Shown: positions 6,459 through 9,017 of the stretch, piece after piece | Position numbering within the stretch: position 1 is the stretch's first letter | Layout of the letters: each line of letters starts with the position of its first letter | Source of the DNA: an uncultured Gammaproteobacteria bacterium | GTDB lineage: Bacteria; Patescibacteriota; Microgenomatia; JAMCZE01 | Assembly (NCBI GenBank): GCA_964641255.1 | Contig: CAZXMM010000001.1 | Span: 681,795 to 745,794 of the forward strand | DNA: 64,000 bases | Direction: 5' to 3' | Position numbers and translations under genes: made by a program | The notes under the pieces: generated by a model | Database searches by the model: none | Seen by the model: only the letters and a program-made list of their open reading frames with translations | What the model was told of the DNA's origin: nothing

Positions 6459-9017
6459 CTAAAATTCAAATAACCTTCCGATTGCTTTTGCAGGCACGCT
6501 TAAAGCATCGGGTAGTATTTCCCTGACAGTAACGATTTTTGCTTTACGGGAGTAATCTTCAATTTTTTTTCTTGTCTCCTCATCAATTTCATCATCTTCA
6601 TCCTGCACTACTGCATTAATAATCCGCCTTACAAGTAGTCTGCCTGTTTGTATATGAAGCGCATGAACTTTGCGGGCAGAAATAATAATCTGGTCCAGAT
6701 TATGGTTTAATTCGGAATCATCAATGACTTTTGCCAGTACCCTCAGATTACTTTCACTGGGACTTATCAGATCACCATTAACCCATGACTTCAGTGTGCC
6801 TATTCCTACCCGGCATCCCGCTGATGATAATTTTGAAGAGAGATTACTTTCATCAATGAAGTTTTCTTTCATATAACTGACAAGAGCAGCGTGCCACTGC
6901 TGGGTATCCGAAAAGAGTAATTTATACTGATCTGACTGGCGGAGGATTGCCAACAGTTCCTCAAACATGTCCCGCTGTGATTCAGCAAAAACCAACTCAT
7001 CACCGGGAATAATGTCTTTCAATTGGCATTTTTCAATCGTTTTGTTATCCCTGTTTAGTTTGTTTAACGCCTGATTTTCCGATACATAAGAATACTGGTT
7101 TTCCTCAAACAGTATTCTGCGGACCTCGGTCATGTTCTCTTCACCAAACTCCTGAAGGTGTACCCTGTAGAGTGAGTCAGAAAGCTTTTGTTCAATGTCA
7201 TCGAGCATCCTTCCCATGTCAGTATCACTATACGTTGTTTCATTTTCGCTATGAAACCCCTGAGCCTTTCTCAGGAAACTATCAGCATCGCTTTCCGGAG
7301 AGGCAGGGTGGGTCTGAAGAACCCTCCCGTAACGCTGATTTTCCTGGGGATAAAGAAGATATATGCATTTTTTGTAAGGGGAAAGAAATAGTTTTGCTGC
7401 TATTTGTTTATTTTTCCACCCTGTAACCACCACCGTTTCTTCCGCAGTATTGCCTGTCTCGGATCCTGTAAGAACATTTCCGAATTTACCGGGAAAGAGG
7501 TTCGTTACCGCATTGCAGTAATTACCGTCCGGAATTAGCAACGAAAAACCTTTTTTTGTTCCATTCGTACCGGTTAGATCGAGAAGCGCTTTCCATTTAG
7601 GATTTTCCTGCTTAATGAGCATGTAAATAAGCTGTATATTTTCCAGTAACTGTTCCCACTCATCCTTTACTTCAAGAGGTACGGAAAAACCATAAGAACT
7701 TCTGACTTTCTGTTCCAACGAACTTATTTTTTCATCGAGCCGTAGATCACTGCCCTCATTCAGTGTGCCGATGTAATTGTGATAATCGTCGATCGTTATC
7801 GGTAACTGCATCATGCCGTTTACCAATGATATCGACCACCGGAGCAGAACCGCACATTCCGGATCGTCCCTGGTTTTACTGTTAATTTGAGTTATGAGAC
7901 GGAAGGAACTGTCTATTGCTTCCGCAAGCTCCTGAGACTGACTTACTGTTAATACTTCCGGATCCGATCCACCGATGTAATTCAGAATAAGATTATGCAT
8001 GGAAACAAGGCTACCGTTATCAACCGAAAGATTATCAGATTTCATACCTTTAAAATCACTTCTTTTCCATATCCAGGCCTGTGCCCCCAGATTTTTCAGA
8101 GTCGTAATCTGGTCTTCATCTTCGGCATTCAGTAAACAAATAACCCTACAGGAATCAGAATCGTTTCGGAGTTTCTCCAGACTTCCGAAGTGGGAACGTA
8201 ATTTTGCCGCGCCATCTACAATGATAAGTTTAATTGAGTCATTCTCCAGAGCTATATCAACAGCCTGGTCCAGATTGGATACCAAACCGCCTGTAGGCTC
8301 CCTTCTCAGGGGATTGCTTCCGATAGGAACAAATTCCCTACCGGAAATATAGTCGGCTACAGGAAAAACAGCAGTTAACGGATCACCACCAAGGTATGTA
8401 TCGGAAATTTCTTCCTTCAACTGAGTCTTGTTTTTTGTTACAAAAAGCATCTTTGATTTCTGAAAGGCTAATAACCCTCCTGGTGGCAGATTCAGAATTT
8501 TTTCGAGCCGCTCTCCGGATATTTCCGCCTGTCTCTTATTTTTTATAGTTACTGCCTGGCTATAAGGCTGAATTGTCCACTGAAACCTGAGCGGAATCCC
8601 GTGCGTAACCGGAGAGTCAGACTTTACATCCTCCCGAACTATATGACGGGTAATACCGTCAGAACCTTTTTCTATACCAAGATATATACCCGGTACTGTA
8701 GTTCTGCCGTTAATCAGCGCAACTGTATCTCCGATCTTAATGCCGGAAAGTACTTCTGGATCTTCCGCCAGAAGATCTCTCTTGAGAAGCGAAAGTAATC
8801 CTTCGATAAATGAAATAGGGGCAATTGTCGGATCAACCGGGTTAACGATTAAAAGGAAATTATCAGTACTGCCTATCAGGTGTTCCAGTATCAATGAAAC
8901 ATTAATCCGGTCGAACTCTGTTTTACCATAGTCAGTATTACAGATCGAAATCGGTAGTTCCCAAAATTCAGGGAATTCTTTTCTGACATCCTGAACTAAG
9001 TTAGTCATGTCCGGCAT
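6459..9017 (-). CDS. Large hypothetical protein, 852 aa, first structural gene of the defense-like operon (DrmE position)
   Basis: Long uninterrupted ORF with a 2-nt gap to the downstream gene. No recognisable catalytic motif on inspection. Confidence 0.55.
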   Translation of the reverse strand: MPDMTNLVQDVRKEFPEFWELPISICNTDYGKTEFDRINVSLILEHLIGSTDNFLLIVNPVDPTIAPISFIEGLLSLLKRDLLAEDPEVLSGIKIGDTVALINGRTTVPGIYLGIEKGSDGITRHIVREDVKSDSPVTHGIPLRFQWTIQPYSQAVTIKNKRQAEISGERLEKILNLPPGGLLAFQKSKMLFVTKNKTQLKEEISDTYLGGDPLTAVFPVADYISGREFVPIGSNPLRREPTGGLVSNLDQAVDIALENDSIKLIIVDGAAKLRSHFGSLEKLRNDSDSCRVICLLNAEDEDQITTLKNLGAQAWIWKRSDFKGMKSDNLSVDNGSLVSMHNLILNYIGGSDPEVLTVSQSQELAEAIDSSFRLITQINSKTRDDPECAVLLRWSISLVNGMMQLPITIDDYHNYIGTLNEGSDLRLDEKISSLEQKVRSSYGFSVPLEVKDEWEQLLENIQLIYMLIKQENPKWKALLDLTGTNGTKKGFSLLIPDGNYCNAVTNLFPGKFGNVLTGSETGNTAEETVVVTGWKNKQIAAKLFLSPYKKCIYLLYPQENQRYGRVLQTHPASPESDADSFLRKAQGFHSENETTYSDTDMGRMLDDIEQKLSDSLYRVHLQEFGEENMTEVRRILFEENQYSYVSENQALNKLNRDNKTIEKCQLKDIIPGDELVFAESQRDMFEELLAILRQSDQYKLLFSDTQQWHAALVSYMKENFIDESNLSSKLSSAGCRVGIGTLKSWVNGDLISPSESNLRVLAKVIDDSELNHNLDQIIISARKVHALHIQTGRLLVRRIINAVVQDEDDEIDEETRKKIEDYSRKAKIVTVREILPDALSVPAKAIGRLFEF

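Follow-up and report, generated by a model that had tools for sequence, protein, structure and literature searches.

A DrmE-family protein, predicted to act as a non-catalytic DNA-binding subunit, heads a DISARM-type cassette with a NERD/SF1 nuclease-helicase gene and no drmC

DISARM is a widespread anti-phage system, and in its canonical class 2 form, represented by the system of Bacillus paralicheniformis, drmE opens an operon in which drmA comes directly after it and which also holds drmB, a C5 methylase gene and the PLD gene drmC. [quoted passage not shown] According to the passages of a preprint that cite Ofir et al. 2018 (bioRxiv 10.1101/2021.12.28.474362), class 2 defence is lost when drmE, drmA or drmB is deleted, and drmC is dispensable for it; the genetic need for drmE is known from the Bacillus system of the canonical type, and the protein described here fails the DrmE model of that system. 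The role of DrmE has been stated to be unknown, in agreement with an earlier sequence-only reading of the present locus that had called DrmE functionally uncharacterised, and DrmC is not only dispensable but often absent, which leaves the question of which nuclease DISARM uses against phage DNA (PMC9142583). In the literature that we searched, the DrmE family has no assigned function and no described fold. The locus analysed here gives leads on both the function of DrmE and the identity of the nuclease.

The gene lies in a window of 64,000 nucleotides, by which we mean the whole stretch of DNA that was analysed, and its features are listed together with those of its neighbours in Table 1.

Table 1. 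Features of the drmE-family gene and of the neighbouring genes in the window
Feature	Position	Strand	Remarks
drmB (DUF1998/MZB)	1..1379	minus	cut by window start
drmA, short form, SF2 helicase of DISARM	1386..4727	minus	1113 aa
NERD (PD-(D/E)xK) nuclease and SF1/UvrD-like helicase fusion	4741..6456	minus	571 aa
drmE-family gene	6459..9017	minus	852 aa, or 849 aa with start ATG 9008
SF2 helicase-like core, predicted	7293..8960	minus	residues ~20-575
Motif I position	8826..8858	minus	residues 54-64, FLLIVNPVDPT, strand-loop-helix, no GK[ST]
Beta-barrel-like insertion in RecA1-like domain	8562..8732	minus	residues ~96-152
Walker B (DExx) strand position	8208..8234	minus	residues 262-270, IKLIIVDGA
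Linker, core to C-terminal module	7155..7250	minus	residues 590-621, pLDDT below 50
DrmE_C module	6462..7133	minus	residues 629-852, beta-rich Hint-like fold with inserted helical domain (predicted)
XRE/Cro/lambda-repressor-type helix-turn-helix (predicted)	6648..6860	minus	residues ~720-790
HTH_17/MerR-like (excisionase-like) ORF	9036..9221	minus	61 aa, ends 18 nt upstream of drmE

The reading frame opens with the ATG at 9017 and stays uninterrupted up to the stop codon at 6459-6461; the 852 residues of the sequence-only reading hold for this open frame, and translation may actually begin at the second ATG, because the alignments of close homologues begin only at residue 4. By its sequence, the protein is a member of the DrmE family already recognised by NCBI and Pfam. 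It scored 297.4 bits (E 2.3e-88; curated cut-off 80) with the NCBIfam model NF038316, 'DrmE family protein', over its full length (residues 31-850 against profile positions 9-838 of 838) and 60.5 bits (gathering score 27) with the Pfam model PF24957, DrmE_C (residues 631-801 against profile positions 3-177 of 181), and it was matched by the PADLOC DrmE model at 4.5e-11. Full-length homologues with 34-84% identity are present in other assemblies. Word-based searches found only 26 homologues, 23 of which also matched DrmE_C in a Pfam search, and the wider family was defined by an exhaustive HMMER search, which returned 780 clusters (50% identity) at E ≤ 1e-3. The full-length homologues, these clusters and the curated model matches together make drmE clearly a real gene. 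PHROGs gave no match to DrmE. One homologue carries the JGI label 'proteasome lid subunit RPN8/RPN11', but a JAB/MPN protease was rejected because Pfam support for it was absent in all 26 members.

With 57.8 bits, the protein stayed below the cut-off (250) of NF038323, the equivalog model of the canonical DISARM DrmE. This match covers the C-terminal part only, where residues 580-850 correspond to profile positions 511-785 and indicate homology to the canonical class 2 protein, and it leaves the N-terminal ~580 residues unmatched. The ten distant family members that we sampled all belong to NF038316 and likewise missed NF038323 (maximum 61 bits). The sequence-only reading had considered a replacement module as well as a divergent DrmE; NF038316 and PF24957 bear out the divergent DrmE and not the replacement module, and 'divergent' is apt in one sense, since the equivalog model failed. 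Among the ORFs of the minus-strand operon that have no obvious enzymatic domain it is the largest, in line with the earlier description as the largest unassigned ORF; the accompanying statement that no motifs could be recognised is fair for classical enzymatic motifs, but the Pfam DrmE_C and NCBIfam DrmE_fam models do recognise the protein. Nothing essential separates it from the NF038316/PF24957 family, with which it shares the size (about 830-890 aa), the invariant C-terminal Trp and a gene position upstream of drmA and drmB, and the protein itself is ordinary within this known family.

The genes around drmE were compared in ten distinct loci long enough to test, all of which belong to the clade of DrmE studied here. 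The order and orientation of five genes, drmE, the NERD/SF1 helicase-nuclease gene, drmA, drmB and a convergent C5 methylase gene (DrmMII), were kept in all ten, the methylase being present in each, and the co-occurrence with drmA and drmB that the sequence-only reading had proposed as a check was thus positive throughout. In scans for the context of distant members, one locus was obtained from genome contigs and five from metagenomes; none was found in viral contigs, and tblastn for such loci gave no match in plasmids (five queries) or phages (one query). At the locus studied, DrmA scored 974 bits with NCBIfam NF038325, DISARM_DrmAS (cut-off 950), and 1.2e-226 with the PADLOC DrmA model, and the truncated DrmB scored 320 bits with NF038324, DrmB_fam (cut-off 240). 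An identical contig, L001, carries the complete drmB (576 aa) and, beyond the end of the window, the convergent DrmMII C5 methylase gene (Pfam DNA_methylase 1.9e-86; best PADLOC match DrmMII 2.4e-113) followed by vsr. The 571-aa protein matches the Pfam models NERD (6.4e-12), UvrD_C, AAA_19 and ResIII, and its best PADLOC match is RTasNERD-Hel (3e-49). Its NERD D..ExK and SF1 motifs I, II and VI are intact, the stretches GEID..E.K, G.AGTGKT, I.DE.QD and NYVG.TR.R being invariant across ten orthologues.

The class 2 components found at this locus are DrmA, DrmB, a DrmE-family protein and DrmMII, and DrmC is absent. No PLD-type DrmC was found in the window or within 10 kb of drmE on L001, the neighbouring hypothetical genes gave no Pfam or PADLOC PLD matches that would point to a hidden one, and tblastn with the two small PLD proteins encoded at other loci returned nothing in the window or on L001. 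Only 2 of the 10 loci have small PLDc_2 genes close to the cassette, and these match Mokosh MkoC rather than the DrmC models. In comparison with the canonical operon, the cassette therefore differs by the NERD/SF1 helicase gene placed between drmE and drmA and by the lack of drmC, and such a DrmC-less cassette is a modest variant. An ORF unrelated to defence, such as a spurious frame or a gene for a DNA-repair factor of the housekeeping kind, is hardly credible in view of the curated DrmE models that match, the strict linkage to drmA, drmB and drmMII, and the company of the cassette in different genomes, where recombinases, genes for conjugation and further defence genes lie beside it. The sequence-only reading had named a confident match to some characterised protein outside defence as evidence against its proposal, and neither the sequence searches of the PDB nor the fold matches gave one.

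In every locus, the drmE stop and the start of the NERD gene lie 2 nt apart, as they do here, or overlap by 4 nt, suggesting that the two genes are translationally coupled. DrmE was the most divergent cassette protein in every locus comparison: the identities of DrmE, the NERD protein, DrmA, DrmB and the methylase were 66, 71, 85, 93 and 86% for locus L004 and 54, 58, 69, 75 and 79% for locus L010. This coupling, the tightest in the cassette, and the faster divergence of DrmE and the NERD protein than of DrmA and DrmB could mean that the first two genes form an independent two-gene defence module lying beside a minimal drmA-drmB-drmMII system, and in PADLOC the NERD helicase best matches a helicase that accompanies other systems (DRT). 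We consider such a module quite unlikely, since the arrangement of all five genes, in order and orientation, is unchanged across the 10 loci from distant hosts, a locus with drmE and the NERD gene only was not seen among the loci sampled (one clade), and the canonical class 2 drmE, which has no NERD helicase beside it, is required along with drmA and drmB according to the preprint passages cited above.

The full-length AF2 model of DrmE (pLDDT 79, alignment of 26 sequences) contains the two RecA-like domains of the SF2 helicase fold, arranged as a RecA1-like domain, a helical insertion (residues 337-482) and an unusually small RecA2-like domain of about 85 residues (492-575). The insertion within the RecA1-like domain is modelled with five strands and carries the family-conserved residues G96, D97, V99, G114, P142 and Y152. 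Foldseek matched the model to LGP2 (E 2e-6, the lowest value), Hef (E 4e-6), XPF (E 1.2e-4), XPB and Chd1, all of them generic SF2 helicases at ~10% identity; the TM-score of the Hef match was 0.39-0.40 when normalised to the target, and the scores were low, 0.12-0.26, when normalised to the query. The domain arrangement is uncertain because of these low query-normalised scores and the 26-sequence alignment. PDB profile searches with the DrmE alignments gave only chance matches to chlorite dismutase (E above 1), and hhalign of the DrmE profile against the DrmA profile gave a probability of 0.3% and no sequence-level link to helicases.

The positions of motifs I and II were assigned to residues 54-64 and 262-270 from the predicted fold, not from a residue-level structural alignment, and neither SF2 motif I (Walker A, GxGK[ST]) nor motif II (DExx) is conserved there among 125 family members. 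At the P-loop position DrmE reads NPVDPT, GK[ST] occurs in 2 of the 125 members, and P60 (99/125) is the sole conserved residue of the stretch; distant members have 'HPTG..' at this position, resembling the first half of PTGxGKT. At the Walker B position, D268 is found in 53 and G269 in 95 of 125 members, so that a Gly stands instead of the second acidic residue, and only 27 of 125 have a D[ED] pair at any point of the region that aligns with residues 258-276. Our survey of conserved positions revealed no apparent arginine-finger-like motif VI, and K474, Y556 and E559 in the RecA2-like region are nearly invariant. From the model and the alignment, the core is predicted to be a helicase that lost its ATP-using motifs. 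Helicase-like proteins of a comparable build are known: the inactive helicase-like domains in the group of Hef/XPF/FANCM and RIG-I-like proteins also have two RecA-like domains with a helical insertion, as predicted for DrmE, and the catalytically dead helicase-like domain of XPF serves as a DNA- and partner-binding scaffold for its nuclease.

The predicted SF2-like fold also fits an enzyme with non-canonical motifs that is active as an ATPase or translocase, and DrmE would then be to class 2 what the SNF2 helicase DrmD is to class 1. DrmD is a member of the Pfam SNF2 family with intact ATPase motifs, and DrmD in class 1 and DrmE in class 2 are each the large, class-specific accessory protein found with drmA and drmB, both with an SF2 fold (predicted in the case of DrmE). 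An active SF2 helicase in the equivalent position of class 1 systems and the near invariance of the three RecA2-like residues would agree with such an activity. Unlike DrmD, however, DrmE is missing the motifs and has no detectable helicase sequence similarity, and the loss of the P-loop Lys or Ser/Thr in the family, the lack of a conserved acidic Walker B pair and of an apparent arginine-finger-like motif, and the size of the RecA2-like domain make an active enzyme distinctly unlikely.

The linker that follows the core is predicted to be flexible and is the conservation minimum of the protein (17% identity to distant homologues), and the C-terminal module behind it reached a pLDDT of 85 in an AF2 model. 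The module is predicted to consist of an XRE-type helix-turn-helix inserted into a Hint-like beta fold made of residues 629-677 and 827-851. The predicted structure of the inserted domain shows the five-helix fold of the XRE/lambda-repressor type and includes the invariant W745 and the conserved R737, T741 and P753; all 125 members carry both W708 and W745. HTH_3 or a related Pfam model was not matched above threshold, the nearest result being 1 of 26 members at E 0.067. The XRE-type helix-turn-helix raises the alternative that DrmE is mainly a transcription factor, which would regulate the cassette as the controller (C) proteins of restriction-modification systems do, with the N-terminal part sensing a ligand or signal. 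We regard this as unlikely, since a protein of ~850 aa with a helicase-like core is far above the size of any C protein, the helix-turn-helix is built into the C-terminal beta module of a conserved protein with several domains, the overlap between the drmE stop and the NERD gene start suggests that DrmE and an enzyme are made in stoichiometric amounts, and the locus already has a separate small HTH_17 gene upstream.

Taking the predicted core and C-terminal module together, we infer that DrmE would be a non-catalytic, DNA-binding sensor or adaptor. Our main reading is that this DrmE-family protein, encoded by the first gene of a five-gene DISARM-type cassette, is probably a non-catalytic DNA-binding subunit serving DrmA-DrmB and the nuclease-helicase, and we give it a probability of about 0.6. 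In a mechanism of this kind, the dead-helicase cleft and the helix-turn-helix would bind invading unmethylated DNA or DNA ends, and DrmE, as a sensor, loader or scaffold, would link the DrmA-DrmB translocase with the NERD/SF1 nuclease-helicase, while methylation by DrmMII would label host DNA as self; the NERD/SF1 enzyme might then take the nuclease role held by the PLD protein DrmC in canonical DISARM. The fastest divergence in the cassette fits DrmE as the component that faces phage DNA or phage inhibitors. The more specific version, in which DrmE is a dead SF2 pseudo-helicase acting as sensor or loader and the cassette forms an unnamed DISARM class with the NERD/SF1 enzyme replacing DrmC as effector, is put forward only tentatively. 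The locus thus offers two leads, namely a DrmE that is predicted to be a DNA-binding pseudo-helicase instead of an enzyme, and an intact NERD/SF1 nuclease-helicase encoded right after it in a conserved cassette with no PLD gene; if true, a class with a pseudo-helicase and a NERD effector bears on which nuclease DISARM employs.

The partner of DrmE, and not DrmE itself, can be compared with ArmD of ARMADA type II and with GajB-like proteins. Like the 571-aa protein, these are SF1/UvrD-like helicases with an N-terminal nuclease domain, and their systems are likewise organised around a YprA-family helicase, DrmA being the corresponding neighbour here (PMC12458937). The nuclease domains differ, ArmD having a RelE-like RNase domain and the 571-aa protein a NERD PD-(D/E)xK domain. 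Named hosts of the drmE cassette include a Verrucomicrobiae MAG and a Paraperlucidibaca MAG. The small ORF upstream of drmE is specific to the locus studied and absent from the other DrmE loci; it matches Pfam HTH_17 with 39 bits and PHROGs annotated as excisionase, and it may be co-transcribed with drmE.

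With a probability of about 0.9, the 852-aa protein is a DrmE-family component of the anti-phage system DISARM. Its ORF was confirmed as one uninterrupted frame on the minus strand and is the first gene of a tightly packed operon; because alignments with close homologues begin only at residue 4 of the product, the second ATG may be the true start. We regard the NCBIfam match as decisive for the identity: the subfamily model NF038316, 'DrmE family protein', was passed with 297 bits (cut-off 80), residues 31-850 corresponding to profile positions 9-838 of 838. Pfam gave one domain, DrmE_C (PF24957; residues 631-801, 60.5 bits vs a gathering score of 27), and the PADLOC DrmE models matched the C-terminal third of the protein. 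The protein failed NF038323, the equivalog model for canonical DISARM DrmE (57.8 bits vs 250, residues 580-850 only), so it is not a canonical DrmE; judged by its profiles, it is a member of a curated sister family (NF038316, PF24957), and the sequence-only reading, which had offered a divergent DrmE as one option, was right. The protein adds to an already known family. Word-indexed homologue searches returned 26 proteins. When 1.84 billion cluster representatives were scanned exhaustively with HMMER, 780 clusters reached E<=1e-3 and, among these, 72 reached E<=1e-30; most are of 830-890 aa and match end to end, with a minority of about 1100 aa carrying an N-terminal extension. This extra part is about 250 aa in members such as P0096, P0108, P0110 and P0145. 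Ten distant representatives all passed NF038316 (277-592 bits) and none passed NF038323.

Coordinates of the features discussed (nucleotides of the window unless a locus or residues are named)
Feature	Location	Strand	Remark
drmE-family ORF	9017 to 6459	-	852 aa
Second ATG of drmE	9008	-	possible true start
NERD helicase gene, 571 aa	6456..4741	-	starts 2 nt beyond the drmE stop
drmA, 1113 aa	4727..1386	-	same operon
drmB	from about 1379, past the window start	-	same operon
HTH_17/MerR-like ORF, 61 aa	9036-9221	-	excisionase-like
RecA1-like domain	residues ~23-330		predicted; small beta-barrel insertion at 96-152
Helical insertion	residues 337-482		predicted
Small RecA2-like domain	residues 492-575		predicted
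drmB/drmMII overlap	L001 19342-19429		3' ends
Vsr gene	L001 20557-20973	+	
PLDc_2 gene	L017 4480-4962	+	326 nt upstream of drmE
PLDc_2 gene	L004 1533-2000	+	8 kb upstream of drmE
629-aa gene	9432-11321	+	upstream of drmE, divergent
Phage-like structural and lysis block	~33450-48333	+	
Major head protein	33451-34620	+	phrog_1328, 2.5e-35
Amidase/endolysin	36541-38232	+	
Tail-fibre-like protein	40397-41731	+	
LPD38 'large polyvalent protein', 1437 aa	42946-47259	+	
Metallopeptidase	47266-48333	+	

The neighbouring genes encode a short-form DrmA (NF038325, 974 bits vs 950) and DrmB (NF038324, 320 bits vs 240); the one lying between drmE and drmA codes for a fusion of a NERD nuclease with an SF1/UvrD-like helicase. 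L001, a 235-kb contig with sequence identical to the window, carries beyond drmB a convergent gene for a C5 DNA methylase (best match in PADLOC: DrmMII, 2.4e-113), after which comes Vsr. We gathered all loci reachable for homologues of 33-66% identity and searched these by tblastn with the window's proteins; the order drmE, NERD helicase, drmA, drmB, convergent methylase was kept in all ten distinct loci of testable length (window/L001, L003, L004, L005, L007, L009, L010, L015, L016, L017); L013, a short contig, ends within the NERD gene. The co-occurrence of drmA and drmB with drmE homologues, proposed earlier as a check, was found in each of the ten. Both the D..ExK motif of the nuclease and the SF1 motifs I, II and VI of the NERD helicase are retained in 10/10 orthologues. 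The DrmE-family gene is strictly linked both to genes of DISARM and to one for an intact nuclease-helicase, and we give almost no credence to a non-defence gene at this position. At every locus, either 2 nt separate the drmE stop from the start of the NERD gene or the two overlap by 4 nt, which suggests that drmE and the NERD gene are translationally coupled. That these two genes form an independent module is improbable, drmA and drmB standing beside them at every testable locus. DrmE is the most diverged cassette protein in all pairwise comparisons: identities for DrmE, NERD helicase, DrmA, DrmB and methylase were, in this order, 66, 71, 85, 93 and 86% at L004, 54, 58, 69, 75 and 79% at L010, and about 33, 47, 53, 54 and 64% at the distant loci.

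The cassette is flanked by serine or tyrosine recombinases, type IV secretion genes, phage-like genes and other defence genes, and therefore appears to travel on mobile elements; among the hosts that the records name are a Verrucomicrobiae MAG and a Paraperlucidibaca MAG. The 3' ends of drmB and the convergent drmMII overlap in every locus (88 nt in L001 and L004, 32 in L005, 14 in L007, 29 in L009 and L015, 20 in L016), which could couple the expression of both genes. A gene for the very-short-patch repair endonuclease Vsr follows the methylase in three of the ten loci (L001, L010, L015), an arrangement as in Dcm-Vsr pairs, hinting at a Dcm-like site as a possible target of the methylase. The 61-aa ORF stops 18 nt before drmE begins and is confined to the copies from this genome (window, L001, L002), the other loci lacking it upstream of drmE.

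No gene for a DrmC-type PLD protein was present in any of the ten loci. Small PLDc_2 proteins near two of them matched Mokosh MkoC, not DrmC, in PADLOC; they are of 155-160 aa and 53% identical to each other, and neither the window nor L001 yielded a counterpart. PADLOC defines type II DISARM by five components (PMC9252829), DrmC among them, whereas the cassette here holds four and lacks DrmC; we accordingly call it a DISARM-type variant without DrmC, not canonical class 2. A 2025 survey of YprA-family helicases refers to 'many uncharacterized DISARM-like ... classes' and, for the related system ARMADA II, describes fusions of a UvrD-type helicase with a nuclease (PMC12458937), which the NERD and SF1/UvrD-like helicase fusion resembles, so such combinations are not unexpected. 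The literature searched, of incomplete coverage, held no description of the DrmE fold or of this cassette.

An AlphaFold2 model built from an alignment of 26 sequences (mean pLDDT 79, pTM 0.64; low confidence at residues 1-11, 154-161, 590-621 and 802-807) gave 40 Foldseek matches in the PDB at E<=1e-3. Nearly all of these were SF2 helicases, with LGP2/MDA5-type proteins, Hef, XPB, XPF and Chd1 at the top. The core is thus predicted to be helicase-like, an assignment that is purely structural because comparison of sequence profiles linked the protein neither to the DrmA helicase nor to any PDB chain. An ATPase signature is not present in the alignment of 125 full-length members, in which motif positions were placed by the fold: at the putative motif I strand-loop-helix only a proline is kept (99/125), GK[ST] occurs in two members, and the putative DExx strand reads hhhhDG or hhhhxG without a conserved acidic pair. 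Certain distant members carry 'HPTG..' at the putative motif I, reminiscent of a decayed PTGxGKT. On this alignment, an active ATPase with non-canonical motifs, comparable to DrmD, is an unlikely reading. Near-invariant residues of the RecA2-like region are K474 of an 'NPK' motif (120/125) and Y556 (117/125) and E559 (111/125) of 'LLYxxE'.

In the predicted C-terminal module, beta strands 629-677 and 827-851 enclose a helical HTH region. This arrangement recalls inteins with an inserted domain; splicing residues are not evident in the module, which would thus be at most an inactive Hint-like scaffold. It holds the sole residues invariant across the 125 aligned members, W708 and W745, as well as conserved R737, T741 and P753, and by our own reading GTLKSWVNGDLISPSESNLRVLAKVI is similar to the typical XRE pattern. 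A C-protein-like transcription regulator is a slightly better candidate than the active ATPase or the two-gene module, and still an unlikely one.

The architecture is predicted to be a dead helicase with an HTH, and we put a pseudo-helicase/HTH adaptor mechanism at somewhat better than even odds. DrmE would be a non-catalytic DNA-binding sensor, loader or scaffold that links DrmAB to the NERD/SF1 nuclease-helicase, and the latter would provide the nuclease activity of the DrmC-less cassette. Single-stranded 5' overhangs activate the translocase DrmAB, with which DrmC did not co-purify, and the role of DrmE was stated as unknown (PMC9142583). A passage of a preprint citing Ofir et al. 2018 reports that class 2 DISARM defence is lost when drmE, drmA or drmB is deleted and that drmC is dispensable (bioRxiv 10.1101/2021.12.28.474362).

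The 629-aa gene encodes a protein similar to portal or head-tail adaptor proteins of phages (phrog_332, 1.2e-13; Pfam SU10_portal, 25.8 bits, under the cut-off of 30). This gene is isolated, lying ~20 kb from the phage-like block, and between them are housekeeping-looking genes for a PpiC rotamase, Band 7, cation efflux, a P-type ATPase and an ABC transporter.
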